The notes under the pieces: generated by a model
Told to the model about the DNA's origin: nothing
Databases searched by the model: none
Seen by the model: the letters and a program-made list of their open reading frames with translations, nothing else
Shown: piece after piece, positions 1-41,803 of the stretch
Numbering within the stretch: the first letter of the stretch is position 1
Layout: each line of letters begins with the position of its first letter
Virus record (IMG/VR): IMGVR_UViG_3300027969_000084
Coordinates: 5,696 to 69,695 of that record
Source of the DNA: a virus
Direction: 5' to 3' (one strand)
DNA length: 64,000 bases
Position numbers and translations under genes: made by a program

Positions 1-10
1 TATATGATGC

Positions 11-205
11 CTAACGAACTGGTTGAATGAAATAGACTTCGCCCGATTGCGTGTAGAAGTCCGATGCGGGGTAGTCAACGTCCGCGTCCACTTCATAGAA
101 GGCGATCTTGAAGGTAGCCTTGGCGTGTGCCTCTGCTTCCTCGAAAGTGCCAAAGGTGGCCACGACAGTCTTGGAGAAGCGGGTAGCGGATGCGATTTCA
201 AACAT
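11..205 (-). CDS. small hypothetical early protein
   Basis: 64-aa ORF, GGGAGA SD, own sigma70-type promoter, GC-rich like the adjacent helicase gene. Confidence 0.6.
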   Translation of the reverse strand: MFEIASATRFSKTVVATFGTFEEAEAHAKATFKIAFYEVDADVDYPASDFYTQSGEVYFIQPVR

Positions 206-238
206 GGTGTGTCTCCCGTTGTTTCAATCTATAACCAG

Positions 239-267
239 ATACTAACCCCACTACAGTATGCTGTCAA
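239..267 (-). promoter_or_regulatory. sigma70-type early promoter
   Basis: TTGACA-N17-TAGTAT on the minus strand upstream of ORF 11..205. Confidence 0.6.
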
Positions 268-328
268 CCTACCTAACGATGTATTTTCAAATAAATTAAA
301 TAAACCTATGGTTGTATTTTAAGCCAGC

Positions 329-353
329 GTTAACACTAAAAATTAGTGTTAAC
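329..353. repeat. 25-bp palindrome GTTAACACTAA-AAA-TTAGTGTTAAC (copy 1 of a ~65-bp imperfect direct repeat)
   Basis: perfect 11-bp arms; second copy at 2244-2268 with similar downstream sequence. Confidence 0.85.
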
Positions 354-408
354 AAAACTACCAATCCAAAATAGCAAAAACAAAAATACAACCTATCATA
401 TGCATGGT

Positions 409-433
409 AAAAAGAGGGGGATTTCTCCCCCTC
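409..433 (-). terminator. intrinsic terminator
   Basis: GAGGGGG/CCCCCTC stem followed by a U-tract on the minus strand. Confidence 0.75.
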
Positions 434-436
434 AAA

Positions 437-520
437 TTATCGTCCGAGTCTCTTGGGTTTCAGAGTCTTGATGGCAAACTTGGTCGCGATCTTTTTGACC
501 TTGGGCACTTTGATTTTCAT
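437..520 (-). CDS. 27-aa Lys-rich peptide MKIKVPKVKKIATKFAIKTLKPKRLGR
   Basis: GAGGA SD, lies between the helicase stop and the terminator; below the ORF-track cutoff. Confidence 0.55.
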   Translation of the reverse strand: MKIKVPKVKKIATKFAIKTLKPKRLGR

Positions 521-541
521 GGGCATCCTCTGGGTTAGACC

Positions 542-2038
542 CTAGCCCACAAACGCTAGGGTGTGCTGGGCACGGGTTACAGCCACGTAGGCTAGGTTAG
601 CTTCCTGCTGAAGCTGCCAAGCTTGGCGAGCAGCCTTAGACGGACAGCGGGCGGCATGCTCGAACAGGAACACGCGATTCCATTCACGGCCCTTAGAGCG
701 GTGATAGGTGGCGAGAACTATGGCCCCCGACACATCATCCGAGAAAAGATCATCAATGAATGCGACAACGGCATCAACCGAGGTGTGGCCCTTGGCCGTG
801 ACAGCGGCAATGATGTGAAGCAGGGTGGCCACACGGTCCTCGATTTCCTCGATTTTTTGGTCCTGACCCTTGGCCATAGCCTTTTGGATTTCGCGATCCT
901 TATAGGTGTCAAGCTTATTAATAAGCGCGGAAGTAGTGGTGACTTTCCAGCGGCGAGCGAGGGCTTTCAGACCCTCGCCAATGGCGCGGCCTTCAACACG
1001 AGCGGGCTTGCCTTGGCGGATCAGGCTGTAGGCCAGATCGATCAGAGGGGCGGTGTTACGGCACAAGATGGCATCACCCACGGCCATATCGTCTGGCAAG
1101 GCGTCAAGGCGCTGTACAGCCCCTTCAGGAGCCTCTGGGGCGGCTTCAATGTCTTGGACATACTGTTGGGCCACGGCCACGACAGCCTTGGGACAACGCC
1201 ATGTGACGGACAGAGGCAGAACCGTGGCATTAAGAGCCTCGATCATGTTCGGCAGGGCCTCAGCGTCCGCACCGGAAAATCCATAGATAGCTTGGCGATC
1301 ATCGCCCACGATAATCATCCGGCCAGTGTGAGGCTTCACAAACTTGCGGATCAAGGCTTGGCGAGCAGGGCTAAGGTCTTGAGCCTCGTCCACGAAAACA
1401 ATGTCCTTACCGAAGCGAACCCGAAGATTCTTAACCAAGGGGAACAAAATCATGTCGTCAAAATCAACCACGTTGGTTTGAGCCAACGATTGACGATAGA
1501 TGATTTGAGCAGCCTCAATCACCGAATCGAGGTCCGAAGTATCCTCGAAACCGTTCACGTCAAAATGGTCAGCGAGGGCGTACCATGCGCCGATATCACC
1601 GATCTGAGAGGTAGGGAAAAACCCGAAGCCTGCGCCCTTGGCGTAGCCCACCAGTTGCTTAATTTGAGCGCGGCAAAACTGATAGATAGGCGCTTCCTGA
1701 TTATCGATCAGGCGATCAACCTTTTTGGAATCCACCTCCGACTTGAATGCGAACTTGATCAAGCCATAGCCAAGAGCATGCAGGGTCGAGGTCTGAATCT
1801 TGCGCCAGTCAGTGTGACCCGCCGCCTTTAGCTTCGAGGAAACTTCTTCAGCAATCGCCTTGTTGAACGCACAAACGAGAACTTCCGCGTTCGGAGCAAT
1901 CGCGGCGAGGGCGTCAACGCCGAGAAGGATGGTGGAAGTCTTGCCGCAGCCCGCACGAGCGATCAGGGCGAGGTTTGAGGAGGTCGAGGTCAGAGCCGAA
2001 AGAAACGCGGCCTGTTGAGCCGTGGGTGCGAAAGCCAT
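542..2038 (-). CDS. UvrD/Rep-like superfamily 1 helicase
   Basis: motifs ARAGCGKT, VDEAQD, VGDDRQAIYGF, TWRCP, HRSKGRE, YVAVTRA; start moved to ATG 2038 after GGGAGA SD. Confidence 0.9.
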   Translation of the reverse strand: MAFAPTAQQAAFLSALTSTSSNLALIARAGCGKTSTILLGVDALAAIAPNAEVLVCAFNKAIAEEVSSKLKAAGHTDWRKIQTSTLHALGYGLIKFAFKSEVDSKKVDRLIDNQEAPIYQFCRAQIKQLVGYAKGAGFGFFPTSQIGDIGAWYALADHFDVNGFEDTSDLDSVIEAAQIIYRQSLAQTNVVDFDDMILFPLVKNLRVRFGKDIVFVDEAQDLSPARQALIRKFVKPHTGRMIIVGDDRQAIYGFSGADAEALPNMIEALNATVLPLSVTWRCPKAVVAVAQQYVQDIEAAPEAPEGAVQRLDALPDDMAVGDAILCRNTAPLIDLAYSLIRQGKPARVEGRAIGEGLKALARRWKVTTTSALINKLDTYKDREIQKAMAKGQDQKIEEIEDRVATLLHIIAAVTAKGHTSVDAVVAFIDDLFSDDVSGAIVLATYHRSKGREWNRVFLFEHAARCPSKAARQAWQLQQEANLAYVAVTRAQHTLAFVG

Positions 2039-2243
2039 CGTGGTGTCTCCCAAAAATTCAAATAACGAGCCTCTCCATACCGTAGGAAAAAACCTTTGTC
2101 AAGATAAAAAAAGGCTTGACAACAATCAACCCTACTGTAAAATGAAAATACAAGATGACCTATCAGAACCACCGAGTCACAGATTCGTAGAGGGAATGTA
2201 ATCCGCCCCTGCGTGACGCAAAAAAAAGAACAAAGCATGAACC

Positions 2244-2268
2244 GTTAACACTAATTTTTAGTGTTAAC
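2244..2268. repeat. 25-bp palindrome GTTAACACTAA-TTT-TTAGTGTTAAC (copy 2)
   Basis: same arms as 329-353 with the central triplet complemented. Confidence 0.85.
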
Positions 2269-2323
2269 AAAAGTACCAACCCAAGATAGCAAAATCCAAA
2301 ATACCATCTGAAATAGAAAAAAA

Positions 2324-2527
2324 TACCACCTAGGGTAGAGTGCCCAGAAAAATACAACCTAGAGTAGAGTAAATGCAACCTAGGGTAGAGTAGTCAAAAA
2401 AATGCAACTCAAAGTAGAATACAACTTAAAATAGCAAAATATAAAATACTATCTAGAATATAATACAACTTCAGGTAGAATGATTACAATTTACAATTTA
2501 AAGTAGAATGCCAACCTATGGTAGAAT
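2324..2527 (+). repeat. about 7 degenerate 18-bp direct repeats, consensus TRCAACYTARRGTAGART
   Basis: e.g. tacaacctagagtagagt, tgcaacctagggtagagt, tgcaactcaaagtagaat, tacaacttcaggtagaat in non-coding DNA. Confidence 0.75.
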
Positions 2528-2858
2528 GAAATCATCAGGAAAAAATTCAATCAAAAAATTTCCAGCCAAAATCTCTCAAGTATTTTAAAAAATTCCAAGT
2601 ATATTTTTTCCAACATAAAAAAAATCCCATAGAAATTTTCTATATGATAATCCCAATGTTCTGCCAATGTTCCGGCCATGCGTCTAATATGCATTATGAG
2701 AAATAATTTTTCTCTATACCAACAATCATAAGATAAAAACATCTAAACGAACATCCAAGTAATCATAAACCAAATACTATCAAACAATAAATTAATCATT
2801 GACTAATCTTAAACCTATGATATCATCATAAATGTCATAGTATAAGGATCAGTCTAAT

Positions 2859-2972
2859 ATGCCTAAGAAACTAACAACCCTTCAAAAAACCATGAAGACT
2901 ATTAAATCCAAACAAGCTAAAAAGACTAAAATGCTGAAGACAGCCATGAAGGTCATTAAGAAGAAGCGTTAA
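2859..2972 (+). CDS. 37-aa Lys-rich peptide MPKKLTTLQKTMKTIKSKQAKKTKMLKTAMKVIKKKR
   Basis: TAAGGA SD and TTGACT-N16-TATCAT promoter at 2799-2826; below the ORF-track cutoff. Confidence 0.6.
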   Translation: MPKKLTTLQKTMKTIKSKQAKKTKMLKTAMKVIKKKR

Positions 2973-3000
2973 TCAACTAAAATGATTTGCAACCTATAAT

Positions 3001-3170
3001 CGCAGAAAAAGTTCGCGAAAAAACTTCGCAACTTTTCCTCGCAACAAAAGTCTGCAAAGAAAGTTCGCAACTTTTTCAGGAAAACTTCGCATAAAAAGTC
3101 TGCAAGAAAACTTCGCAGAAAAACTCTGCAACTTTTTCTCAAAAAATCCGCAGACTTTTATCGCAACTTT
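3001..3170 (+). repeat. about 12 short A-tract/T-tract plus (T/C)(C/T)GCA repeats, ~13-bp period
   Basis: aaaagttcgc, aaaacttcgca, aaaagtctgca, aaaactctgca recur in non-coding DNA. Confidence 0.7.
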
Positions 3171-3449
3171 TTAAAGATTTGACGACGATCTAATAGCCTC
3201 AAATTCCTCTTCAGTCTCAATAGCCTTACCATTAAATAAACCATATGGAGCAAATGGCTTCTTCACACCATTAATAAGATCATTAACTTCTTCCATTGAT
3301 TCCGCTACAGTCCATATTACTGTAGAACCAGTAAGACCACCATAAATCAATGTCTTACTATCTTCAGAATACATCGATACAATGTGAGAAGGATTCAAAT
3401 AAAGAACCTTGCCCACATATTCTTCACTCGCATTCGTTAACTTAATCAT
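3171..3449 (-). CDS. FlbD/SwrD-like small protein
   Basis: MIKLT...LYLNPSHI...V.ES.EEV..LI pattern typical of the FlbD family. Confidence 0.55.
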   Translation of the reverse strand: MIKLTNASEEYVGKVLYLNPSHIVSMYSEDSKTLIYGGLTGSTVIWTVAESMEEVNDLINGVKKPFAPYGLFNGKAIETEEEFEAIRSSSNL

Positions 3450-3517
3450 ATCCAAATCCTTAAAAACAATTCATTGAATATAACATACTAATAGTATATA
3501 AACAAATATTAAGAAAA

Positions 3518-3940
3518 TTAGTCTTCAGACTTTCTAGCCTTCAACTTTTTAGTTTCTTTCTCACCAGTTTTCTGGCTGTATATACCATCAACACCATATT
3601 TTTTATATCTATCTACCCAAGAATCAAGTTCTTCACGACTCATGTCATAACGCTTCTTAGCTTCTTCATATGAGAATAAACCAGCATCAATAAGAACTAT
3701 TAACTTTAACTTCATTAATGGACTACCTATACCTCTAGGAGAATTAACCGGTAAATCATTTGCAGTAATTCTCATAGGCTTACCATTTACATCTATCACT
3801 ACATGCTTCTGAGATAGTCTGTCATATTGTGAATCATTCTCCATCACTCTAGAACGAGAATGCTCCTTCAATAAGGATATAGCCTCATCATATATTCCAT
3901 TACTCTCTAATAAAGCATAAAGCTTAGCAATCGGTGTCAT
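3518..3940 (-). CDS. SciP/DUF1153-like HTH protein
   Basis: VIDVNGKP..T..DLP...K...LI..GL.S.EEA..RY.MS.EE..SW....KYG..G resembles SciP; GGAG SD; TAAATA at 3965-3970. Confidence 0.65.
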   Translation of the reverse strand: MTPIAKLYALLESNGIYDEAISLLKEHSRSRVMENDSQYDRLSQKHVVIDVNGKPMRITANDLPVNSPRGIGSPLMKLKLIVLIDAGLFSYEEAKKRYDMSREELDSWVDRYKKYGVDGIYSQKTGEKETKKLKARKSED

Positions 3941-3980
3941 AATAGTTCTCCATAACGTTAAAACTATTTATTCACATAAT

Positions 3981-4217
3981 TTAATCAAATAACGGAAACC
4001 ATCTATCAAACTCTTCAGGAACTAAATTATAACGAGATACAGCATCATCAAATGATATAGTATCAGAAAGAACCGCATGTACCAAAATGTCCTTCAATTC
4101 TTTAGTCCATTCTATATTACCAGTAGAAGGCAAATCTTTTAAATTATCTTCCCTATATTCATTCAATAATAATAGAGCCTCAGATAATAATAAAGATATC
4201 TTGTCTAAAGATTCCAT
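3981..4217 (-). CDS. second, C-terminally short SciP/DUF1153-like protein
   Basis: DLPSTGNIEWTKELKDILVHAVLSDTISFDDAVSRYNLVPEEFDRW resembles the SciP core; start moved to ATG 4217 after GGGGA. Confidence 0.6.
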   Translation of the reverse strand: MESLDKISLLLSEALLLLNEYREDNLKDLPSTGNIEWTKELKDILVHAVLSDTISFDDAVSRYNLVPEEFDRWFPLFD

Positions 4218-4774
4218 AACAGTTCCCCCCCAATATTCAAAAATATTTATGGACATACCATCTATACAAAAATACATACTAAATTTATGCAGATTTTCTA
4301 CACAACTTTTCATAGGAAAATATGCAGGAAATTGTTGCCAAGTTTTATCACCATTTTTATACAAAAAGTTTACATAAAAATATCTAATACTTTGCTCAAT
4401 ATAATACTTTAGTCTATATTCGTGCAATACCCTTAAAAACCATCTTTTACTCAATCATTTCAACACTATACCTAAACTATTTTTTATCATTATTATATCA
4501 TACCTTATTACCATTTTTGTCAATTTGGCATATAAGAAATATTACATAAATGTGGCATGAATCATGATTTAGGTATAGTTCAAGTATAGTTATACAAACA
4601 ATAGCTTTAATTATTTTTTCTATATTTTATAATACTTTGCTTAGATCATGAATGCTTATGATGATTGGTACAGATGATTGAAACAATGATCAGTTGAAGG
4701 TTTTTGAGAACGATTCTGTGGTACATTTAATGAAGACACTTTTTTGCTGTTTTATTGTATTTTGACAATTTGCA

Positions 4775-5010
4775 TTAGTACTAATGTAAAAGGATTAGTA
4801 CTAAGCTTTTTGAGAGGATTAGTACTAATTTGGGGTGGATTAGTACTAAGCTTTTTGTGGTGAATTAGTCCTAATTTTGATGCATTAGTACTAAGCTTTT
4901 TTGCATCATTTTTTACCTCATTTTTGCTTATATAATTAGTACTAATTTTGATGCATTAGTACTAAGCTTTTTGGAAAGGATTAGTCCTAATTTGTTTGGA
5001 TTAGTACTAA
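4775..5010. repeat. array of ten 10-bp boxes: palindrome TTAGTACTAA x8, variant TTAGTCCTAA x2
   Basis: starts at 4775, 4795, 4819, 4840, 4865, 4885, 4936, 4956, 4981, 5001. Confidence 0.95.
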
Positions 5011-5074
5011 TCCAATTATTGCATTTATGGTTACTGATTGTGTATGATGGCATCTATAATTAGGATATGCATAT

Positions 5075-5287
5075 ATGTCTTTATCGGACAAGAAAGAGAT
5101 TAACAGGAAGGCTGCTGCTGCATTTACTTCTAAGAAGAAGGATCAGGGTCAGCGGTTGATTAAGGGTTGGGTTGATTCTGATACTTACGATATGTTAGTT
5201 TCTTTGAAGGGTTCTCGTTATAAGAGTACTGATGAACTTCTTGCTGATGCTATAGCTATCTTATATGTAACTGCGAATAATTTATAG
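5075..5287 (+). CDS. ribbon-helix-helix-like DNA-binding protein
   Basis: basic N-arm then RLIKGWV strand, helix, G turn, STDELLADAI helix. Confidence 0.55.
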   Translation: MSLSDKKEINRKAAAAFTSKKKDQGQRLIKGWVDSDTYDMLVSLKGSRYKSTDELLADAIAILYVTANNL

Positions 5288-5296
5288 GAAATTAAA

Positions 5297-5770
5297 GTGA
5301 AGATTACACAGGAAAGATTAAAAGAGTTATTAGATTATGATCCTATTTCTGGTATTTTTACTAGGAAGAAGGATGGTAAGATTGTTGGTCGTTTAAATGA
5401 AAATGGCTATGTTATTATAAACGTTGATGGTATTTTATTTAGGTCTCACCGATTGGCATGGTTATATGTTTATGGTGGTATTGTTCCATTTCCTTTAGAT
5501 CATATAGATGGCAATAAAGAAAATAATTCTATTAATAATCTCAGGTCTTGTACTCAAAGTCAGAACCAAGCTAACATACCATTATCTAAGAATAGCACTA
5601 GTGGGTTAAAAGGTGTTTGGTATGATAAGCCTAAGAAGAAATGGAAGGCTGGGATTAAGAAAGACAATAAGAAATATCATTTAGGTTATTATCTTACTAA
5701 GGAAGAAGCGCACGAGGCATATTGCAAGGCTGCTGTTGAGTTCTTTGGTGAATTTGCGAGATTTAAATAA
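5297..5770 (+). CDS. HNH-AP2 homing endonuclease
   Basis: HRLAWLY, DHIDGNKENNSINNLR, then AP2-like SGLKGV..KWKA.I..LGYY...EA. Confidence 0.9.
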   Translation: MKITQERLKELLDYDPISGIFTRKKDGKIVGRLNENGYVIINVDGILFRSHRLAWLYVYGGIVPFPLDHIDGNKENNSINNLRSCTQSQNQANIPLSKNSTSGLKGVWYDKPKKKWKAGIKKDNKKYHLGYYLTKEEAHEAYCKAAVEFFGEFARFK

Positions 5771-5774
5771 TAAA

Positions 5775-5948
5775 ATGACTGATGATGAAAAAGAGATTAT
5801 TGATCAACTTGCGAAAGTTTGGAACTTATTTATTAGTCTTCCGGTTGAACATCCTAGTGATTTGGGGGAGTTTCAAACAGCCATACATTCTGCTCAACTA
5901 TTAGTAATGGCTCGTTTGGGTAGAAGGATTTATAATGAACGGTCTTAG
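5775..5948 (+). CDS. small hypothetical phage protein
   Basis: WN.F..LP.EHPSD..EF..AIH pattern; start moved to ATG 5775. Confidence 0.65.
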   Translation: MTDDEKEIIDQLAKVWNLFISLPVEHPSDLGEFQTAIHSAQLLVMARLGRRIYNERS

Positions 5949-6397
5949 TGTGGTCTGTTAAAGCCACGTAGCTTGACAATCGTCGGGGCGAATCTGACCA
6001 TAGAAAAACTATCTTCATCTTGTCGTATCGTGGAAAACCCAAACTTTTTATACCATTTTTCTAGTTGTTCTGTTGTCATTCGATTATTGCCAAATGCTTT
6101 TGCCGTAAGCTCTAATTGTACTCCAAGCTTGTTGGCCAATGAGCATATAAATTTCATAGTTTTAGAAGCATGTCCTTGATTTGGTTCTATTGCAGAAATA
6201 TCATGAATATAAATGGCATCTTTTCTTAGCCTTGAAAGATGCATCATGGTTAACCCATGAATTCGTTTTTTATTATCCCATGGGTGAGGTGATGTAGCAT
6301 TGTTGAATTCATCAATAAACTGATCGGCTGGGCCAGCTTCTGATGGTTTATTTGCAAGGGTTAATACATTTGATTCTATGATTTCTGAGTAGCGCAT
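5945..6397 (-). CDS. GNAT-like acetyltransferase with MRYSEI N-terminal tag
   Basis: NQGHAS acetyl-CoA loop and LEKWYKKFGF motif; TAAATA 4 nt upstream of ATG. Confidence 0.65.
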   Translation of the reverse strand: MRYSEIIESNVLTLANKPSEAGPADQFIDEFNNATSPHPWDNKKRIHGLTMMHLSRLRKDAIYIHDISAIEPNQGHASKTMKFICSLANKLGVQLELTAKAFGNNRMTTEQLEKWYKKFGFSTIRQDEDSFSMVRFAPTIVKLRGFNRPH

Positions 6398-6442
6398 GAT
6401 ATATTTAGCATTGATGGTTATTGAATTTGGTGAGAATGAAAA

Positions 6443-7225
6443 ATGAATAATGCTGTTTTTATGTATGATGAAACTCCGGAAGATGAGCTTACGGATATTC
6501 CTGTAGATAATATTCCTGTAGATGATACCGAAAGTAAACAGGATCAGCTTGATTATGCGATATATTCTTTATTAAATAAGATATTTGAGGAATCGAGTAC
6601 TGATAAGGCGTTAGTAGATTTGTTTATCAATCCTACGTCGGATGATGGGGTTGAGTATGGTGATGTTATTATTATTCATAGTTCCGATGAATATGAATAT
6701 GATGCTGAATATCGAGCCAAGATTGATGCATATGTTAGCGATGAAGGATATGAAGAGGATATAGATTATATTAAGGATTGTATTATTATAGATTCTAATC
6801 ACAATCCTTACAATATTGGGGAGATTGATAGAAATTTGAACATCATGCATGATTATATTATAAAAGCCAAAAATGGTAGTTTTGACATTAGGTTTTCTAC
6901 CTGTTTTTATGAGCTTGAATTAATACAAACTAAGGTCGTTTATGCCAACATGGATACTGGTGGCTGGGAAGGGCCGGATAGTATTAGGATTAAAGATAGT
7001 TATAAACTTTTACCTGTTTATGTTTGTTATTTGGATGTTGGTGGTATGGAAGATGATATTCAATATGATGTTTCTATTGCGGGTATGAATAAATTAATCT
7101 CTGATATAGAGACGCATGAAATTTATTGTAAGTTGAATGACACTCTTGTTACGGATTTTGATTTTTCTCATCGTTCTAGAAATATTTCTTTGATTAAGTT
7201 TCCTTGTCCTTGTTGTAGTGAATAG
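6443..7225 (+). CDS. acidic hypothetical protein
   Basis: 260-aa ORF, D/E-rich, ends in CPCC. Confidence 0.7.
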   Translation: MNNAVFMYDETPEDELTDIPVDNIPVDDTESKQDQLDYAIYSLLNKIFEESSTDKALVDLFINPTSDDGVEYGDVIIIHSSDEYEYDAEYRAKIDAYVSDEGYEEDIDYIKDCIIIDSNHNPYNIGEIDRNLNIMHDYIIKAKNGSFDIRFSTCFYELELIQTKVVYANMDTGGWEGPDSIRIKDSYKLLPVYVCYLDVGGMEDDIQYDVSIAGMNKLISDIETHEIYCKLNDTLVTDFDFSHRSRNISLIKFPCPCCSE

Positions 7226-7231
7226 GGGTGG

Positions 7232-7528
7232 ATGATGGCATTAATGAGAAATACTATTCCTGCGAAGACTTCTTTGGATTGTAGGGTTAAGTTTTTATAT
7301 GATAGTCCTCTTTCTAAAAATAATTCTACTAATGTAATCTTGCGGTTATTTGGTTTAGTTCCTCTTGAAAATGATAAGTTGTATAATGAAATGCTTACTT
7401 ATTGTCGGGCTACATTTAGGGGGTATGTTTATTATGTTGAATATGCATCTGGGAGAAAGTGGGCGATAGAGTTCTTTTTTAAGACTCCTTCTGATGCAAT
7501 GCTTTTTATGTTGAGGTGGGGTCAATAG
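7232..7528 (+). CDS. FKLRW-tail family protein
   Basis: ends FFFKTPSDAMLFMLRWGQ. Confidence 0.7.
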   Translation: MMALMRNTIPAKTSLDCRVKFLYDSPLSKNNSTNVILRLFGLVPLENDKLYNEMLTYCRATFRGYVYYVEYASGRKWAIEFFFKTPSDAMLFMLRWGQ

Positions 7529-7535
7529 TTTTGAG

Positions 7536-7563
7536 TTGACAATTTAGGATTATTTGTTATTAT
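7536..7563 (+). promoter_or_regulatory. early promoter
   Basis: TTGACA-N16-TATTAT with extended -10 TG; 26/29 nt identical to the promoter at 27751-27779. Confidence 0.7.
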
Positions 7564-7605
7564 TTTTATATAGTTTTGTATCAATAGCATTTATGGAGAA
7601 TATAC

Positions 7606-7926
7606 ATGTATTTGGTTCGTAATATTGAGAGTAAGAATCTTTTGGGTATGTTTGCATCTCGCAGTATTTCTGGTCTTTTTTCTCAGATTGATTCTGAGAC
7701 TGATCCTTTTGAATTTGAATATCTTTTGATCAAGACGGGTGGTTTTATATTTGACGAAGATATTTCGGGAGAATATGTGCCTTATGATGAAGAAAATGAG
7801 TCTGACGAAGATGTCAGTAGTTTTCCTACTGCAACCATGAATGATTGGCTTTATGACAAGGTTCGTGGCAATCCTTCGGTTTGGAAGAAGTTTACTCGCA
7901 AGAATCACAATGATTGTTATCGGTAA
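7606..7926 (+). CDS. hypothetical protein
   Basis: 106 aa, GGAG SD, flanked by a 26-bp direct repeat (7566-7591, 7930-7955). Confidence 0.7.
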   Translation: MYLVRNIESKNLLGMFASRSISGLFSQIDSETDPFEFEYLLIKTGGFIFDEDISGEYVPYDEENESDEDVSSFPTATMNDWLYDKVRGNPSVWKKFTRKNHNDCYR

Positions 7927-7970
7927 CGGTTATATAGTTTTGTATCAATAGCATTCATGGATATTTTGAT

Positions 7971-8288
7971 ATGAATGAAGAAGACGATCAAATTGTATTT
8001 GTGCAGGAATATTGGGAAAATATATCGCATGTTAATAATCCATCGGAAGTAGTTCAGTTAGCTTCTGTTAAAGAATTTCCTCATGCTATTGCTTTTATTA
8101 AAAATCCAAGTGAAAAAGTTCAACTAGCGGCTGTTATGCAAAATAGTTCTGCAATTGGATATATTAAGAATCCAAGTGAAGCAGTTCAAGTAGCGGCTGT
8201 TACTGAAGATGGATGGGCAATTAAATATATTGATAATCCGAGTGATCGGGTTAAGATGCTTGCAGAATTATGTAAGGAACATGTGTGA
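7971..8288 (+). CDS. 22-aa repeat (DUF4116-like) protein 1
   Basis: NPSE.VQLAAV...G.AI.YI repeats, LAELCK C-cap. Confidence 0.85.
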   Translation: MNEEDDQIVFVQEYWENISHVNNPSEVVQLASVKEFPHAIAFIKNPSEKVQLAAVMQNSSAIGYIKNPSEAVQVAAVTEDGWAIKYIDNPSDRVKMLAELCKEHV

Positions 8289-8800
8289 TGACTGAAGAAG
8301 AGCAAATTGCATGTGTGAAGGAACATTTAGGAAATATCCGATACATCAAGAATCCATCTGAAGCAGTTAAGTTGGCTGCTGTTACACAATATGCATTGGC
8401 AATTCGATATATTAAGAATCCATCTGAAGCAGTTAAATTGGCGGCTGTTGCTCGATGGGGCGATGCGCTTCAATATATTAATAATCCGAGTGAAGCAGTT
8501 CAATTGGCTGCGGCCACTCAATATGGAACGGCAATTCAATATATTGATAATCCAAGTGAGCAAGTTCAATTGGCGGCTGTCATTGGAAATGGATATGCAA
8601 TTAAACATATCAAGAATACAATTGATCTAGTTAAATTGGCTGCGGTTGCTCAAAATGGAAAGGCAATTCAATATATTAAGAATCCGAGTGAAGAAGTTCA
8701 ATTAGCGGCTGTTACTGAAAATGGCTGGGCTATTCAATATATTGATAATCCGAGTGATCGGGTTAAGATGCTTGCGGAACTATGCAAGGAATATGCATGA
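8288..8800 (+). CDS. 22-aa repeat protein 2
   Basis: MTEEEQ start overlapping the upstream stop (TGATG). Confidence 0.85.
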   Translation: MTEEEQIACVKEHLGNIRYIKNPSEAVKLAAVTQYALAIRYIKNPSEAVKLAAVARWGDALQYINNPSEAVQLAAATQYGTAIQYIDNPSEQVQLAAVIGNGYAIKHIKNTIDLVKLAAVAQNGKAIQYIKNPSEEVQLAAVTENGWAIQYIDNPSDRVKMLAELCKEYA

Positions 8801-9444
8801 TGACTGAAGAAGAGCAAATTGCTGCCGTTACTAAAGATGCATGGGCAATTCAATGGATAGATAATGCAAGCGAAGTCGTGCAATTAGCGGCTGTTACTAA
8901 TCATGTGTATGCAATTCAGTATATAAAAAATCCAAGTGAAGCTGTGCAATTGGCTGCGGTAATGAACGATGGAGAGGCAATTCGAGATATTAATTGTCCA
9001 TCTGAAGCAGTTCAGTTGGTTGCTGTCACGCGAGATATAGATGCAATTCAATATATTGGAAATCCAAGTGAACTAGTTCAATTAGTTGCTGTTAAACAAG
9101 ACGGTTTTGCAATTCAATATATCAATAATCCATTAGAAACAGTTCGATTGGCGGCTGTTAAAAAACATGGGTCGTCAATCCAATATATTAACGATCCAAG
9201 CGAAGCCGTTCAATTATCGGCTGTTACTCAAAATGGACATGCAATTTATTATATTAATAATCCATCTGAAGAAGTTCAGCTAGCGGCTATTATGCAAAAT
9301 AGTTCTGCAATTGCATATATTGATCATCCATCTGAAGAATTGCAAGTAGCGGCTGTTACTCAAAATGGTTGGGCTATTCGTCATATAAAGAATGCATCTG
9401 AACGGGTTAAGATTCTTGCTGAATTATGCAAGGAATATGCGTGA
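8797..9444 (+). CDS. 22-aa repeat protein 3
   Basis: ATGA overlap, MMTEEEQ start, LAELCKEYA end. Confidence 0.85.
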   Translation: MMTEEEQIAAVTKDAWAIQWIDNASEVVQLAAVTNHVYAIQYIKNPSEAVQLAAVMNDGEAIRDINCPSEAVQLVAVTRDIDAIQYIGNPSELVQLVAVKQDGFAIQYINNPLETVRLAAVKKHGSSIQYINDPSEAVQLSAVTQNGHAIYYINNPSEEVQLAAIMQNSSAIAYIDHPSEELQVAAVTQNGWAIRHIKNASERVKILAELCKEYA

Positions 9445-9824
9445 TGACTGAGGAAGAGCAAATTGCTTACGTAACGAAAAATGGAGAGAATATCCGGCGT
9501 ATTAAGAATCCATCAGAATATATTCAATTGGTTGCTGTTCGAAGAAATGGTTTTGCAATTGAATATATTGATAATCCATCCGAGGAAGTTCAAATGGCTG
9601 CTATTGAAAAAAATGCATATACCCTCGAATATATCAAGAATCCATCTGAAGCAGTTCAATTAGCTGCTATTACTAAAAATGGATATGCAATTCTATATAT
9701 TAAGAATCCATCCGAAGAGTTTCAATTAATTGCAGTTCAACAAAATGGATATGCAATTCATTATATTGACAATCCAAGTGACCAAGTTAAAGTTATGGCT
9801 GAAATGTGCAAGAGATATTCATGA
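9444..9824 (+). CDS. 22-aa repeat protein 4
   Basis: TGATG overlap, same architecture. Confidence 0.85.
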   Translation: MTEEEQIAYVTKNGENIRRIKNPSEYIQLVAVRRNGFAIEYIDNPSEEVQMAAIEKNAYTLEYIKNPSEAVQLAAITKNGYAILYIKNPSEEFQLIAVQQNGYAIHYIDNPSDQVKVMAEMCKRYS

Positions 9825-10174
9825 CCGAATCCGAAAAAGTTAGATATGTGTATATGACTGAAGAAGAACAAATAGCACATGTTCAGAAACATTGGGAAAA
9901 TATCCGATATATTCATAATCCATCCGAAGAGGTTCAATTAGCTGCTGTTTCTTTTTATGGCCCCGCCATTCAATGGATTAATAATCCATCTGAAGCAGTT
10001 AAAATAGCGGCTGTCACGCAACGTGGATTTACTGTTATCAATTTTGATGATCCAAGTGAAGCGGTTCAATTAGCTGCGGTTACTCAAAATTGTGGGGCAA
10101 TTACATTTATTAAAAATCCGACAGATAGTGTTCTGGTTCTTGCAAAATTACTCAAGTACATGCCTAATGACTGA
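9821..10174 (+). CDS. 22-aa repeat protein 5
   Basis: ATGA overlap; doubled N-cap MTESEKVRYVY-MTEEEQ. Confidence 0.85.
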   Translation: MTESEKVRYVYMTEEEQIAHVQKHWENIRYIHNPSEEVQLAAVSFYGPAIQWINNPSEAVKIAAVTQRGFTVINFDDPSEAVQLAAVTQNCGAITFIKNPTDSVLVLAKLLKYMPND

Positions 10175-10481
10175 AGAAGAAAAAATTGAACATGCGGCAG
10201 CATATTGGGGGTCGATTAAAGATATTGAAAATCCATCTGAAGCAGTGCAATTGTCTGCGGTTCAATACTCTGCGTATTCTATTACATATATTCAAAACCC
10301 ATCTGAAGTAGTTCAATTGGCGGCTGTTACACAAAGTGGAGACGCAATTGCATATATTGATAATCCAAGTGAAGAAGTTCAATTAGCTTCCGTTATACAA
10401 AATGGTTGGGCAATTGAATTTATTAAAAATCCATCTGATCGTGTTAAGATCGTTGCTGAATTATGCAAGGTTCATCCATGA
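10167..10481 (+). CDS. 22-aa repeat protein 6
   Basis: MTEEEK start at 10167 overlapping the upstream gene by 8 nt. Confidence 0.85.
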   Translation: MTEEEKIEHAAAYWGSIKDIENPSEAVQLSAVQYSAYSITYIQNPSEVVQLAAVTQSGDAIAYIDNPSEEVQLASVIQNGWAIEFIKNPSDRVKIVAELCKVHP

Positions 10482-10924
10482 CTGAAGAAGAAAAAATCGC
10501 ATATGTGACAACACATTGGCATGCAATTGGGCATATTGAGAATCCATCTGAAGCAGTTCAGTTGGCGTCTGTTAATAATCATGGATATACAGTTAAATAT
10601 ATTAAGAATCCAAGTGAAGCAGTTCAATTGGCGGCTGTTACACAAAGTGGATATGCAATCCATTATATTAATAATGCTAGTGAAGAAATTAAATTGGCTG
10701 CTGTTAAACAAGACGGTTTTGCAATTCAATATATCAATAATCCATCCGAAGCGGTACAACTGGCTGCTGTAAATAATCTTGGACATGCAATTCGGTATAT
10801 TAAGAATCCATCTGAAGAAGTTCAAATAGCGGCGATTATACAAGATGCACGGGCAATTAATGTAATTGATAATCCATCCGATACTGTTAAAATTATTGCA
10901 GAAATGTGCAAGAGATATTCATGA
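10478..10924 (+). CDS. 22-aa repeat protein 7
   Basis: ATGA overlap, same architecture. Confidence 0.85.
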   Translation: MTEEEKIAYVTTHWHAIGHIENPSEAVQLASVNNHGYTVKYIKNPSEAVQLAAVTQSGYAIHYINNASEEIKLAAVKQDGFAIQYINNPSEAVQLAAVNNLGHAIRYIKNPSEEVQIAAIIQDARAINVIDNPSDTVKIIAEMCKRYS

Positions 10925-11304
10925 CTCAAGAAGAACAAATGGCCAATGTCCAACGAAATGGGCGGCTCATTCTAGGTATTGATAATCCATCCGAAGAAGT
11001 TCAGTTGGCGGCTGTTCGACAAAATGGATATGCTATTCATTTTATTGATAATCCATCCGAAGCAGTTAAATTAGCCGCTGTTAGGCAAAATGGATATGCA
11101 ATTTATTATATTAAGAATCCATCTGAAGAAGTTCAGCTAGCGGCTATTATGCAAAATAGTTCTGCAATTGCATATATTGATTATCCATCTGAAGAATTAC
11201 AATTAGCTGCGGTTACGCAAAATGGATGGGCGATCCATATGATTGAAAATCCGAGTGAACGAGTTAAGATTATTGCTGAACTTTGCAAGGTACATGATGA
11301 CTGA
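10921..11304 (+). CDS. 22-aa repeat protein 8
   Basis: ATGA overlap, MTQEEQ start. Confidence 0.85.
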   Translation: MTQEEQMANVQRNGRLILGIDNPSEEVQLAAVRQNGYAIHFIDNPSEAVKLAAVRQNGYAIYYIKNPSEEVQLAAIMQNSSAIAYIDYPSEELQLAAVTQNGWAIHMIENPSERVKIIAELCKVHDD

Positions 11305-11773
11305 AGAAGAACAAATGGCTAATGTCCAACGAAATGGGCGGCTCATTCAATTTATTAAGAAGCCATCTGCGGCGGTGCAACTCGCTGCTATCCAGCAAAA
11401 CGCATGGGCAATCCATTACATTAAAAATCCTAGCAAAAAGTTGCAGTTGATTGCTATTAAAAAACAACCTAAAGTAATCAAATATATCAATAATCCATCT
11501 GAAGAAGTTCAGTTGGCTGCGGTTACTCAAAGTGGCTGGGTGATCTATGATCTTAAGAACCCATCGGAAGATGTTAAACTTGCCGCCGTTTCATCTGCTG
11601 GTCGGTCGATAAAATACCTCAATGACCCAAGTGAGAAAGTTCAACTAGCCGCAATTCAACAGGACTGTAATGCAATTAATTATATTGTAAATCCATCCGA
11701 TGTTGTTCTAATTTTTCATGCCATGTGTTATGATTATCGTGATGAGGATGAGGGCGACGATGGCGATGACTGA
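11294..11773 (+). CDS. 22-aa repeat protein 9 with acidic tail
   Basis: N-cap nearly identical to protein 8; ends DEDEGDDGDD. Confidence 0.85.
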   Translation: MMTEEEQMANVQRNGRLIQFIKKPSAAVQLAAIQQNAWAIHYIKNPSKKLQLIAIKKQPKVIKYINNPSEEVQLAAVTQSGWVIYDLKNPSEDVKLAAVSSAGRSIKYLNDPSEKVQLAAIQQDCNAINYIVNPSDVVLIFHAMCYDYRDEDEGDDGDD

Positions 11774-12017
11774 AGAAGAACAAATTACCTATGTTAAGGA
11801 AGATTGGATGAAAATCCGATATATCGAGAATCCATCTGAGGCTGTTCAATTAGCTTCAGTTACTGAACATCCATTTTCTATTCAATTTATTAAAAACCCA
11901 TCCGAAGAAATTAAATTAGCTGCTGTTACAAAAAGCGGATGGGTTATTACATGTATCAAGAATCCATCGGATAATTTAAGGATACTTGCTGAACTATCTA
12001 AGCTACCTATTCAATAA
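11766..12017 (+). CDS. 22-aa repeat protein 10
   Basis: MTEEEQ start at 11766. Confidence 0.85.
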   Translation: MTEEEQITYVKEDWMKIRYIENPSEAVQLASVTEHPFSIQFIKNPSEEIKLAAVTKSGWVITCIKNPSDNLRILAELSKLPIQ

Positions 12018-12064
12018 AAAGTTTTCGAGGATGAAACCGTTTTCCATATTTCACCCTCTATTTT

Positions 12065-12994
12065 TTATTTGATTATTACATTATCTCTTTTATCATTTTT
12101 ATCGCCATCAATGAGTTTTAGTCCGTATTCATTGATTTCATTGTTAACAACGAAACTGGCTTTTCTCTTCAATGGATTATTCTTAAACGGGCTATAATCG
12201 ACATAATGGTGCCAACGATTAAACTTCCATACAACCGAAGCCACATTAGGATATGCATCTTCTAGCATTTTGGATTTGGCTAGTGTACCTTCGACTTCAT
12301 AAAAATCCTTATTGTTTCCACCAGCCATGCGCTGAGTAGTAACCTTTCCTTGTAGGAAAGCATTCAATTGAATGGTTGCCCATCCGGCGGTCAATACATC
12401 TAAGCACAATATGGTATCTTCGTTATATCGTCCGCGCCATTTGAAAGGTATATCATTACGAATCAGAAGGCATGAATAGATTCTTGTATTAAGGCAATAT
12501 GGTCTAGCTCTAGAATCAGATTTACAAAAAGAGTAATAGTTGAATCCGGCGATTGCTAGGTTTTCATATCTATCTACAAAATCTTCTGTTGCCACGAAGT
12601 TAACATTTGTCCGCATAGGGCATTTAATGTTTCTATTCAGACGGTGGAAATCATCGATATTATCATCTAATACCCAATGCCACTTATGTCCTTCTGCAAT
12701 AGAATGATCCCATGCAAAGTTTCGCGCAGGACCAGGACCTGTACTTTTGGTAAAACCATGATCGTCTAGTAGTTCATATTCTTCTTTATACTTCTTAGGA
12801 AGTATCAGAAGTCTATCTGCTCCGACGACCTTAGCGTATTCGTCAAACTCTTGTTCTTCTACGATAACCCTGAATGGAACGCCGAGCCTAGTAAGCGCTC
12901 TATTGGTTGTCATATTGGTATATCGACCTTTTGATACGATATACACTGGATAGCGGTTTTCCTGTTTATTCTTGTATCCAGCGTTTTGCTGCAT
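12065..12994 (-). CDS. GREB1/TAGT-like GT-A glycosyltransferase (candidate DNA base modification)
   Basis: YPVYIVSKGR, GPGPARNFAW, WVLDDNI (DxD-like), WRGRYNED, MAGGN motifs. Confidence 0.7.
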   Translation of the reverse strand: MQQNAGYKNKQENRYPVYIVSKGRYTNMTTNRALTRLGVPFRVIVEEQEFDEYAKVVGADRLLILPKKYKEEYELLDDHGFTKSTGPGPARNFAWDHSIAEGHKWHWVLDDNIDDFHRLNRNIKCPMRTNVNFVATEDFVDRYENLAIAGFNYYSFCKSDSRARPYCLNTRIYSCLLIRNDIPFKWRGRYNEDTILCLDVLTAGWATIQLNAFLQGKVTTQRMAGGNNKDFYEVEGTLAKSKMLEDAYPNVASVVWKFNRWHHYVDYSPFKNNPLKRKASFVVNNEINEYGLKLIDGDKNDKRDNVIIK

Positions 12995-13229
12995 TCTTTC
13001 CTCGCTCTAATTCTGGATACCAAGCACTCTTAGTTTTTGGTGTTAATTTTTGGCCAATCAATTTAGAAAAAGCATCTAAATCTTCTTGATTGTCGAAACG
13101 AAAAATAATCTTAGCGAATGGTGGTTTATTTTCCTGAACAAACTCAGGCATTTCTACCCATTCTTCGGTTGATGATGTATCATCCTGATTATCATCAAGA
13201 TCACCCAACCAATCGTCCAATGATGACAT
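12966..13229 (-). CDS. small partner protein of the glycosyltransferase
   Basis: EW.EMPEF.QE...IGQK.TPKTKS.WYP; GGAG SD; overlaps the GT start. Confidence 0.7.
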   Translation of the reverse strand: MSSLDDWLGDLDDNQDDTSSTEEWVEMPEFVQENKPPFAKIIFRFDNQEDLDAFSKLIGQKLTPKTKSAWYPELERGKNAAKRWIQE

Positions 13230-13377
13230 AACTATCTCCAGATAATTTTAAATATGTTTCACAATATCGGACACGATATAATCGTGTCAATAATAAAATG
13301 GGTTATGGTTGATGTTGCATTTTTTGATAGTTTTGCTATACTGAAAAAGATTTATACATGGAGAAATAGCAGGCAAT

Positions 13378-13656
13378 ATGGATGAAGATATCGAAATCAT
13401 TACTCTTGATGATCAGCAGACGGAACGTCTTGTTGTAATTGGTGTTGACTGGGACGATAATCTCGACCGTCCTGCACACAATGCTATATTTACTACTGAA
13501 GTTGACGAATGGTGTTTAGAAAATCTTTTAAAATCAACACGTATTCGTTGTGGCAGGCATTTTTATAGTTTACAGCCGTATGATTATCATTATGAGATTG
13601 ATGTAGAGTTTGGTTCTGAAGATGATTTGTTTTTGTTTACCTTGAGGTGGCTTTGA
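13378..13656 (+). CDS. FKLRW-tail family protein
   Basis: ends VEFGSEDDLFLFTLRWL. Confidence 0.75.
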   Translation: MDEDIEIITLDDQQTERLVVIGVDWDDNLDRPAHNAIFTTEVDEWCLENLLKSTRIRCGRHFYSLQPYDYHYEIDVEFGSEDDLFLFTLRWL

Positions 13657-13979
13657 TGGAAGATTTTGAATCAAATCCGGTCGAGGCACAGACTGAAGCT
13701 GAAATAAAATATTTTACAATGTTGCTTTCTCGGCTTGATTTTCTTAAGAATCAGGATCGATGGTTAAATATTCTCTCAAAAGATAGAGAATCTGATTTGT
13801 ATGATAATGTTGTGGAAATTAACATCAAAGAATCGAATGCGGTTGTAGAAAATATCAATTGGTGGCTGCGCGATAATGGTGGGAATTGGGGCTGCGGTTT
13901 TAATTTCTCAAATTTTACAATTTCTTTCAATTTTGAAGATAATAATACTGCTATTCATTTTAAGCTAAATTGGGGCTGA
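13656..13979 (+). CDS. FKLRW-tail family protein
   Basis: ends FNFEDNNTAIHFKLNWG; TGATG coupling. Confidence 0.75.
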   Translation: MEDFESNPVEAQTEAEIKYFTMLLSRLDFLKNQDRWLNILSKDRESDLYDNVVEINIKESNAVVENINWWLRDNGGNWGCGFNFSNFTISFNFEDNNTAIHFKLNWG

Positions 13980-14006
13980 TTGTGTTTAAGCAATGGATAT
14001 TTGGTA

Positions 14007-14522
14007 ATGACTGAAGAAGAAAACCTTGAACGTGTAAAGAAAAATGGATGGGAAATTCAATATATTGAAAATCCATCAGAAGAAGTACAACTAGCTGCGG
14101 TTAAACAACGTGGATGGGCAATTCGATATATTAAGAATCCATCAGAAGCCGTTCAATTGGCTTCAGTTCAACAAAATGGATATGCTATTAAATGGCTTAA
14201 GAATCCATCCGAAGAATTACAAATGATAGCGGTTCTACAATTCTCTGGTTTGACAATCGAAAATATTGAGAATCCAAGTGAAGAAGTTCAATTAACTGCG
14301 GCCAAACAAAATGGGGCAGTTATTGAATGGATTAAAAATCCGAGTGAAGAGGTCCAGTTGGCTGCTGTTACTAATAATGGCTGGTTCGTTAAATATATTA
14401 ATAACCCGTCTGAAGCAGTTCAATTAGCTGCGGTTACTGAAAATGGTTGGGCCATTAAATATATTGATAATCCTACTTACCGAGTCAAGGTACTTGCCGA
14501 ATTATGCAAGGATCATGACTGA
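14007..14522 (+). CDS. 22-aa repeat protein 11
   Basis: MTEEE start, LAELCK end. Confidence 0.85.
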   Translation: MTEEENLERVKKNGWEIQYIENPSEEVQLAAVKQRGWAIRYIKNPSEAVQLASVQQNGYAIKWLKNPSEELQMIAVLQFSGLTIENIENPSEEVQLTAAKQNGAVIEWIKNPSEEVQLAAVTNNGWFVKYINNPSEAVQLAAVTENGWAIKYIDNPTYRVKVLAELCKDHD

Positions 14523-14995: not shown

Positions 14996-15051
14996 TTATT
15001 ATTCTCGTTTTGATTGTATACTATTTATACGCTTGATTTTTTAACCAGATT

Positions 15052-15234
15052 ATGATATTATTTAATTACGATATGGCGGCGAGGGCAGAGGAAAATCGTA
15101 ACTTCATCGTTGGACAGACTGCTGAAATTTTATGCGATGTGATCACGCAGAACCAAGATGGTACATATTCGTTGCGTTTCCCACGCTTTGTACGCTTTAG
15201 AGATGACAAGGAGAACCAGAATGACTCAATATAG
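15052..15234 (+). pseudogene. C-terminal fragment of ATP-dependent DNA ligase
   Basis: IVGQTAEI..D.ITQNQDGTYSLRFPRFVRFRDDK = ligase OB-fold end/motif VI, no catalytic domain upstream. Confidence 0.7.
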
Positions 15235-41245: not shown

Positions 41246-41803
41246 TTATTCAGCAACGAAAGCTTCCACTTCGGTTTCCACCGAAGCAACCACCTTGGCC
41301 TTGCGAGCACGAGGAGCCTTGGCTTCCACTTCGACAACGGTTTCCACCGCTTCAAAAGCTTCAACTGCGTCAACCTTGCGCTTACGGCCACCACCGATGC
41401 CCAGACCCGATGCCTTGGCAAGTTCCGAACGCTTTGCAGCGTAGTTCGGAGCAACCATAGGATAGTCAGCAGCCAGACCCCAACGGGCGCGGTACTCATC
41501 AGGGGTCAGGTTAAAGGAAGTGCGCAGATGGCGCTTCAGCGACTTCATCTTCTTACCATCTTCGAGGCAAACGATGTAGTCAGCAGTGATGGACTTCTTG
41601 ATCGAAACAGCCGGAACCAGTTCAGGCTTTTCCACAACAACTTCGGGCTGCGAAGGGTTGAGAATGGTAGCAAGCGACGTATGAATTGAAGAAATCACAG
41701 AACCAATGTCATTTTGTGAAACAGAATTGTTGCTCAGATAAGCAGCAGCCAGTTCGATGGTGGCAGTGATATGGGTCTCGGTAGTTTCGTTAAATTGCTG
41801 CAT
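41246..41803 (-). CDS. mucR: Ros/MucR family transcriptional regulator
   Basis: AAYLSNN, PAVSIKKSI, VCLEDGKKMKSLKRHL, YR.RWGL..DYPMVAPNYA..RS.LAK..GLG. Confidence 0.95.
   Translation of the reverse strand: MQQFNETTETHITATIELAAAYLSNNSVSQNDIGSVISSIHTSLATILNPSQPEVVVEKPELVPAVSIKKSITADYIVCLEDGKKMKSLKRHLRTSFNLTPDEYRARWGLAADYPMVAPNYAAKRSELAKASGLGIGGGRKRKVDAVEAFEAVETVVEVEAKAPRARKAKVVASVETEVEAFVAE

Follow-up and report, generated by a model that had tools for sequence, protein, structure and literature searches.

CtrA-activated promoters are described as falling into two classes, each with its own negative regulator: SciP inhibits the late-S-phase class and MucR1/2 the G1 class (accessible part of PMC6847485). 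SciP has been reported to bind CtrA directly, and whether it acts via CtrA or via DNA is disputed (accessible part of PMC4083442, which also covers the role of MucR1/2). Two arginines outside its helix-turn-helix (HTH), Arg35 and Arg40, are described as critical for the SciP-CtrA interaction (accessible part of 10.1101/335265, citing Gora et al. 2010). There is printed precedent for phage promoters under CtrA control (accessible part of PMC9437464), and phage phiCbK carries a homologue of a host cell-cycle transcription regulator, GcrA (accessible parts of PMC3556154 and PMC7987155). Our literature search found no description of a phage-encoded SciP. Here we describe two tandem SciP-like genes, a long one (P0001) and a short one (P0002), in a 64,000-nucleotide (nt) stretch of viral DNA, hereafter the window (IMG/VR record IMGVR_UViG_3300027969_000084, positions 5,696-69,695; all coordinates below are those of the window). 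Like the phiCbK GcrA homologue they are phage homologues of a host cell-cycle regulator, but they belong to another protein family and another phage type. We have little doubt that both are SciP-derived, functional phage genes. Our overall best explanation, to which we give a probability of roughly 0.45, is that their products are dimerising regulators of host or phage promoters that dispense with the canonical contact to CtrA. New here are the tandem pair, the beta-hairpin kept in one copy, a portable N-terminal module, the loss of Arg35 and Arg40, and a contrast in evolutionary rate between the copies. The parts of the locus are as follows.

3518..3940, minus strand: long SciP-like gene P0001, 140 amino acids (aa), an open reading frame (ORF) with a DUF1153 match
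3851..3940, minus strand: N-terminal helical module of the long gene, codons 1-30, phage-specific
3581..3814, minus strand: DUF1153 (SciP-like) domain in the long gene, residues 43-120 by Pfam match
3941..3980, minus strand: 40-nt spacer separating the short and long genes, from direct sequence reading
3981..4217, minus strand: short SciP-like gene P0002, 78 aa from its ATG, an ORF with a DUF1153 match

Both proteins match the Pfam family DUF1153 (PF06627; gathering cut-off 23.5 bits) above its cut-off, P0001 with 37.8 bits (expectation value, E, 2e-9, residues 43-120) and P0002 with 36.2 bits (E 7e-9, residues 26-74), and a six-frame search of the whole record also recovers both matches. The top NCBIfam family for each is NF051866, 'CtrA inhibitor SciP', with scores of 39.2 bits for P0001, 37.7 for P0002 and 86.5 for their relative P0006, all below the equivalog cut-off of 100 bits; the canonical controls, Caulobacter segnis SciP and P0020, reach 140.3 and 135.2 bits. 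P0001 and P0002 align with each other (E 2e-4), with 35% identity over 31 residues. In the PDB, the best sequence matches to a profile of the phage group are two solved DUF1153 proteins, 2oa4 (SiR5; E 6e-9) and 2jrt (Rhodobacter sphaeroides RHOS4_12090; E 4e-8); both lack the N-terminal module, and their entry titles name no function. More generic matches are seen for the long copy. P0001 passes the HTH_28 cut-off (29.0 versus 25 bits), which P0002 fails, and it has weak PHROG transposase matches (E 1.7e-6 and 6e-4). Weak NCBIfam matches to the insertion sequence (IS) families IS630, IS481 and IS3 reach 12-20 bits, and the SciP model outscores all IS models. In Pfam, PHROG and NCBIfam, P0002 matches DUF1153/SciP only. 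Judged by these profile matches, both proteins are true members of the DUF1153/SciP family, beyond a generic transposase HTH. We file neither as a SciP orthologue; they may nonetheless work on the same circuit.

The preliminary description of this DNA had proposed, from the letters alone, that both ORFs carry a SciP-like DLP/K/S..EA..RY/EE...W pattern, and the translations bear this out, with Gly in the long copy at the position of Trp36. P0001 reads VVIDVNGKPMRITANDLP, then K..L..AGLFSYEEAKKRY....EEL..W, then GVDG, so that both the N-terminal part and the C-terminal G..G expected of the long copy are present, the former as a beta-hairpin. P0002 reads DLP....W..K..LV.AV.S..S..DA..RY....EEF..W and terminates 5 residues past that Trp, in agreement with the earlier view that this copy stops just after the HTH. 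The similar added N-terminal helix claimed for both, with the pattern EA..LL.E, is found in the sequences and in the models described below. Compared to cellular SciP of C. crescentus and other Alphaproteobacteria, which has about 90 aa, the model of the long copy shows the same layout of beta-hairpin, arm, HTH and C-terminal helix, and both phage proteins retain the motifs DLP, K41, S..EA..RY and EE...W. They differ in that they add the N-terminal module, are tandem and phage-borne, and have no CtrA box nearby; the short copy also lacks the hairpin and the C-terminal helix.

A purine-rich, Shine-Dalgarno-like run precedes the ATG of each gene, with GGAGAA 7 nt ahead of the long-gene ATG, inside the 40-nt spacer. 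The spacer has almost the same sequence in a related metagenome contig, L083, which keeps the gene order of short gene, long gene (P0006) and third gene. The short and long genes are probably co-transcribed. An alternative TTG-started ORF of the short gene extends to 4454; this start is unsupported because the similarity to L083 sets in just a few bases ahead of the ATG at 4217 and vanishes upstream. Read this way, the short gene likely starts at that ATG.

We examined the reported CtrA-contact residues in an alignment of 44 rows (35 non-phage and 9 phage). Residues are numbered as in C. segnis SciP (93 aa), where positions 35 and 40 are both Arg.

Position 35: Arg in 35 of the 44 rows and in 33 of the 35 non-phage rows; Ile in P0001, Glu in P0002
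Position 36: Trp in 42 of the 44 rows and in all 35 non-phage rows; Gly in P0001, Trp in P0002
Position 40: Arg in 24 of the 44 rows, namely 24 of the 35 non-phage rows; Met in P0001, Leu in P0002

The basic canonical arm RWVIRRK becomes GIGSPLMK in P0001 and EWTKELK in P0002. Only P0001 and its relative P0004 (71% identity) are without Trp36, both having Gly, and the relatives P0005 and P0006 retain R35 and W36. A literature search on R35A or R40A in SciP found nothing relevant.

Close relatives of the pair are few. A word-indexed search of 5.8 billion clusters returned five proteins for P0001 (itself and others at 99, 71, 56 and 45% identity) and two for P0002, whose relative P0008 is 83% identical. 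An exhaustive phmmer search of 1.8 billion representatives gave 38 matches at E<=1e-3, mostly DUF1153 proteins of 64-130 aa together with some multi-HTH proteins, and only the query itself fell below 1e-10. Scanning IMG/VR with a pattern from the phage-group alignment yielded 47 stretches that fit the pattern and no relative among them, and a metagenome scan found L083 and a second contig, L084, alone. Among cultured phages (INPHARED), neither 20 kilobases (kb) of the window nor P0001 or P0002 has a close DNA or protein relative; P0006 has a single match there (39% over 64 residues, E 6e-8), to an Erythrobacter phage XM05 hypothetical protein, a diverged SciP relative on a phage of Alphaproteobacteria. 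Relatives made up 582 of the 600 stretches in a genome scan, whose pattern was built from canonical-like rows and is biased towards canonical SciP; by their names, 76 of the 80 stretches kept are alphaproteobacterial, 3 are named by phylum only and 1 is a Pseudomonas-labelled metagenome-assembled genome. The closest approach to cellular SciP is made by P0006, which is 50.6% identical to C. segnis SciP over 79 residues; the corresponding identities are 51% for P0006, 39% for P0005 and 31% for P0001, and 37.5% over 48 residues for P0002. The neighbour of the C. segnis SciP gene encodes a long product that we take to be the flagellar M-ring protein FliF.

The long forms P0001 and P0003-P0006 have unbroken reading frames, as does the short-form cluster. 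A tree was built from a short alignment (49 rows, 84 columns) that excluded the N-terminal module; in it, the short forms cluster with P0006 and P0005 (support 97/95), and P0001 and P0004 lie elsewhere on a long branch. A topology that unites all six phage rows is better than the free-search tree by 5.9 log-likelihood units (approximately unbiased test, p-AU 0.64). Given these tree tests, the simplest history is a single capture and a later duplication within the phage lineage, of which so short an alignment gives no proof. We regard it as well supported that both genes are real, that they are phage paralogues descended from an alphaproteobacterial sciP with the module gained, the gene duplicated and one copy trimmed, and, equally, that the lineage that took up the SciP-type gene is one of megaphages like Agrobacterium phage Atu_ph07 and Sinorhizobium phage Phosso.

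The N-terminal module sets the phage proteins apart from the cellular family: it is missing from all 35 non-phage rows of the SciP alignment. Over residues 1-24 it is the same in P0001, P0004 and P0006, and P0005 differs once (A5 to E); P0006 departs at residues 25 and 27. The short forms have a related single N-terminal helix. On L084 (665-1030), the N-terminal 27-30 residues recur (77% identity) in a 121-aa protein with another C-terminal part, which has no Pfam match; the gene of this protein adjoins a 231-aa ORF. Because it also occurs on this different C-terminal part, the module is portable. The L084 copy shows many synonymous differences, so that the module is conserved in protein and not in DNA. 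Against L083, the ratio of nonsynonymous to synonymous substitution rates (dN/dS; here and below rough figures from a single pair, window versus L083, and few codons) is 0.04 over 26 codons of the long-gene module and 0.09 over 24 codons of the short-gene module, and with dS at 0.3-0.4 the modules are conserved at the protein level. Of the 1070 six-frame ORFs in the 69.7-kb record, which makes up about 12% of the genome, a profile of the module matches just the SciP-like pair, and on that ground we rejected the idea of a general tag such as a capsid-targeting signal. An Atlas search with residues 1-34 gave nothing beyond generic helical hairpins. Found on two different C-terminal domains, the module may represent a small, new type of interaction domain in large phages.

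The two genes differ in how fast they change. Compared to L083, DNA identity is about 88% in the short gene and about 97% across the spacer and into the long gene for 80 nt; it drops to about 60%, with indels, in the long-gene SciP domain and is high again right past the stop codon of that gene. The short gene has a dN/dS of 0.17 (dS 0.56), the first 27 codons of the third gene one of 0.13, and the gap-free 36-codon HTH stretch of the long gene one of 0.91 (dN 0.50, dS 0.55). As the dS of the diverged stretch resembles that of its flanks, fast change in place is favoured over import of a distant allele, in what is a small sample. By these substitution rates the short copy is evidently under purifying selection; it is the better conserved of the two and does not fit the role of a mere by-product.

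The predicted structures agree with the sequence layout. The AlphaFold2 model of P0001 (42-row alignment; mean predicted local distance difference test, pLDDT, 76.5) has helices at 3-13 and 17-30, strands at 46-51 and 54-59, and helices at 74-85, 91-98, 102-115, 117-124 and 126-139: that is, an N-terminal helical hairpin, a low-confidence linker, the beta-hairpin, the arm, a three-helix HTH, two C-terminal helices and a basic tail. This tail differs from the C-terminal helix of canonical SciP, which ends in QQYR. The top PDB fold match of the model (Foldseek) is again 2jrt (probability 0.98, E 0.063, template modelling scores 0.38/0.53). In the P0002 model (mean pLDDT 76.9; helices at 2-26, 39-50, 56-62 and 67-77), one long N-terminal helix is followed by the arm and the three-helix HTH, with neither beta-hairpin nor C-terminal helix. 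A predicted complex of P0001 with Caulobacter CtrA (CTRA_CAUVC) had a score of 0.00 and a mark of 0.32; it was run without controls and weighs neither way on binding.

The record that holds the pair is 69,695 bp long and rated 12% complete, from which our own arithmetic gives a genome of about 580 kb. Consistent with the phage setting assumed at the outset, PHROG and Pfam scans of this IMG/VR virus record find helicases, primase, DnaB, a UvsX/RecA-like protein and virion proteins. Its DnaB helicase is 53% identical to that of Atu_ph07 (490 kb) and 51% to that of Phosso (469 kb); the next relatives are Pseudomonas PA5oct-like phages (47%), and a complete 578-kb IMG/VR record stands at 52%. By this marker, the closest cultured kin of the megaphage are Atu_ph07 and Phosso, both phages of Rhizobiaceae. 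The phage also carries a regulator of the MucR family:

41246..41803, minus strand: Ros/MucR-family regulator gene, 185 aa, PF05443 match

The match is full-length (156.4 bits against a cut-off of 25.4, profile positions 2-123 of 123). Over 14 control genomes PF05443 matches in Caulobacter only, and six phage records have a MucR match, four of them with a named host: Mesorhizobium, Erythrobacter (two) and Citromicrobium, all Alphaproteobacteria. The SciP-like genes, the MucR gene, the hosts of these MucR-matched phages and those of the closest cultured kin, Agrobacterium and Sinorhizobium, make an alphaproteobacterial host likely. The zinc-motif stretch of the phage protein reads CLEDGKKMKSLKRHLRTSF, and its tail of 45 residues is acidic or alanine-rich. 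Against what we take to be the Ros pattern, Cys-x2-Cys...His...His, the phage protein has Asp for the second Cys and is missing the final His. The window MucR is 47% identical to that of Erythrobacter phage vB_EliS-R6L and 54% to that of Mesorhizobium phage Cp1R7A-A1, phages of 65-131 kb, unlike the megaphage of the window; the genome table of vB_EliS-R6L lists its gene as a MucR family regulator (PMC5463345).

Downstream of the long gene, the run is completed by one more gene:

3171..3455, minus strand: third gene of the run, an ORF for a small FlbD-fold protein of 92-94 aa from a widespread phage family

It scores 17.9-18.1 bits with PF06289 (FlbD), below the cut-off of 24.7, and all seven members of its family match that model at E<=0.1 (best 4.7e-6). 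Its nearest ESM Atlas clusters, of 530 and 215 members, are 99-100% viral, and PF06289 exceeds its cut-off in none of 301 sampled genomes of the class of C. segnis and in none of five named ones. The idea of a flagellar module, which the third gene had suggested, is weakened by these two results, a family essentially absent from the sampled Alphaproteobacteria and nearest clusters that are viral. Directly downstream of the three genes, at 3000-3131, lie about ten units of a 12-13-nt GTTGCGAAGTTTT-like repeat, and terminator-like hairpins are frequent in 2000-5400 (8 sites versus 1.1 expected), several of them formed by these repeats. Repeats of 21 nt and 50 nt, CTCTACCCTAGGTTGCATTT-like, occupy 2321-2418. 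The repeat region has a similar translated counterpart in L083, and an Rfam scan of window positions 1-8000 gave no match.

Upstream of the pair, at 4500-4535 on the minus strand and about 290 nt from the short-gene ATG, there is a promoter-like element (TTGACA, 20 nt, TATAAT, with TG two bases ahead), which was read by eye; its spacer is too long for the promoter scan, which left it unlisted. Between this upstream region and a plus-strand ORF of 70 aa (5075-5287), the stretch 4775-5010 holds ten TTAGTACTAA palindromes (8 exact and 2 with one mismatch) set 20-25 bp or 51 bp apart. The TTAGTACTAA word has 14 matches in the window, a number reached by 0 of 100 shuffles. Other viral contigs, varied in G+C, carry arrays of this palindrome too, with 10 copies on L172 and 4-5 on five others, there at spacings that are multiples of 21 bp. 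At 14 palindrome loci elsewhere, there is no DUF1153 gene within 2 kb and no homologue of the window's neighbour genes. We set aside the array as an operator of the pair, given the same arrays on viral contigs without DUF1153; possible identities are an iteron, a partition site and an operator array.

In the reading we prefer, both proteins would be HTH-type transcription modulators that have abandoned SciP's Arg35/Arg40 contact to CtrA. Their added amphipathic N-terminal helices would mediate homo- or heterodimers of the phage proteins, and dimerisation would substitute for CtrA, allowing the proteins to reach promoter DNA or promoter complexes alone. Likely targets would be host promoters under SciP/CtrA control (flagellar, chemotaxis, pilus and division genes) and possibly phage promoters, and CtrA-activated promoters of the other class would fall to the phage MucR homologue. 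Because the same phage carries the Ros/MucR homologue, an interest in the CtrA regulon is plausible; we tentatively put some effect on the host CtrA regulon at a little short of an even chance. The suggestion of the preliminary description that the phage may suppress CtrA output stands in part. Membership in the SciP family, kinship to phages of Rhizobiaceae and the MucR gene speak for it, and the loss of R35 and R40, the sub-equivalog scores and the lack of a CtrA box nearby speak against it.

Several results weigh against our preferred reading. R35 and R40, critical for the interaction according to the accessible part of 10.1101/335265, are both replaced by non-basic residues in P0001 and in P0002; R40 is absent from all nine phage rows; and the long copy has lost the nearly invariant W36. 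Both proteins fall about 60 bits short of the SciP equivalog cut-off. Full CtrA boxes (TTAA-N7-TTAA) are not enriched in the 64 kb, with 8 found versus 5.8 expected and 24 of 100 shuffles reaching 8, and there are none near the pair, between 3000 and 5100. DUF1153 is absent from both Atu_ph07 and Phosso, and the Pfam model finds it in none of five large MucR-bearing viral records, including the 578-kb one; our own DUF1153 profile also found none in the same five, in a search that had no positive control. In Atu_ph07 and Phosso, MucR and FlbD gave nothing above cut-off. As these kin and the MucR-bearing records are without DUF1153, the pairing of SciP with MucR is not general to the clade. The dN/dS of about 0.9 in the long-copy HTH could signal relaxed constraint instead of adaptation, and dimerisation through the N-terminal helix is suggested only by sequence pattern and models.

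In one alternative, both proteins would bind host CtrA in the manner of SciP and prevent the recruitment of RNA polymerase, with the short copy as a dominant-negative or separately regulated form, as had been proposed. The DUF1153 and SciP-model matches of both proteins fit this, as do the relatives P0005 and P0006, which keep R35 and W36, the MucR homologue that points to the same circuit, and the direct SciP-CtrA binding reported in the accessible part of PMC4083442. However, the losses of R35/R40 and W36, the sub-equivalog scores and the lack of a CtrA box nearby make direct canonical CtrA inhibition unlikely, and CtrA is highly conserved, yet the long-copy domain diverges quickly between related phages. 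We consider this explanation quite improbable, and direct canonical binding to CtrA just as improbable as a separate claim. Scarcely better placed, and also improbable, is a two-armed takeover, in which a SciP pair freed from CtrA contact by its new dimerising module would shut the late-S class (flagella, chemotaxis, pili, division) and the phage MucR would shut or open the G1 class. The host would be frozen for a long infection, and superinfection via flagella or pili would be blocked; the long copy would track host differences or counter-measures, with the short copy as its constant heterodimer partner.

Unlikely as well, if less so than either of these, is a purely phage-internal role, for which the SciP fold would have been recruited as a dimeric HTH repressor or activator of phage genes (the pair's own operon or the ten TTAGTACTAA palindromes) with no link to CtrA or host promoters. 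The N-terminal helices would suit a dimerisation module, the 10 palindromes at 4775-5010 lie upstream of the operon and suit dimeric HTH proteins, the CtrA-contact arginines are gone, and P0001 also matches the generic HTH_28. Yet the same arrays occur elsewhere with neither DUF1153 within 2 kb nor homologous neighbours, and such a role leaves SciP as the source gene and the co-resident MucR unexplained. We find it very doubtful that the pair, or at least its long copy, was captured from a host, plays no part in infection and is now under relaxed selection. The dN/dS of about 0.9 in the long-copy HTH, the lost Trp and the rarity of the family (5 and 2 proteins in 5.8 billion clusters, and the query alone below 1e-10 in 1.8 billion) point that way, but the intact frames of the long forms and the short-form cluster, strong purifying selection (0.17 for the short copy, 0.04-0.09 for the two modules), conserved Shine-Dalgarno sites and synteny, and a fold predicted with confidence do not. 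Hardly credible is the last alternative, that the genes are DNA-binding ORFs of a transposase: the weak PHROG and IS630/IS481/IS3 matches and the fact that PF06627 also matches in E. coli are set against the absence of a transposase catalytic ORF beside the pair, a SciP model that beats every IS model and a short copy that matches DUF1153/SciP alone.

Elsewhere in the window, we noted further features of this megaphage. A four-gene NAD salvage cluster (36000-41094, minus strand) comprises a glutamine-dependent NAD synthetase, an isochorismatase-family protein that is possibly a nicotinamidase, a nicotinate phosphoribosyltransferase and a cytidylyltransferase-NUDIX fusion. At least nine ORFs with DUF4116 repeats (PHROGs 5925 and 17056; 8285-20275, plus strand) form a large paralogous family among small genes. 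A TET-associated glycosyltransferase (12065-12994, minus strand, 154 bits) hints at hypermodified DNA bases, and a 260-aa N6/N4 DNA methylase (34991-35773, plus strand) matches the CcrM model in its C-terminal third alone (74 bits versus a cut-off of 830). A DUF481 protein (32274-32936, plus strand, 58.9 bits) and a ferritin/Dps-like protein (61079-61525, plus strand, 71.6 bits) are also present.

If the two proteins are plain phage repressors, the pair is a case of ordinary domain recruitment. SciP and MucR, however, shape which promoters the essential master regulator CtrA fires in the alphaproteobacterial cell cycle (accessible part of PMC6847485), and a phage with remodelled versions of both would be a natural tool showing how the CtrA circuit can be overridden. 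It would extend the lone printed precedent we found, the phiCbK GcrA homologue, for which the accessible parts of its sources likewise show no function. The phage proteins form a natural separation-of-function series, from the canonical-like P0006 to the strongly diverged P0001, which could be used to map the surfaces of SciP for CtrA, DNA or other partners.

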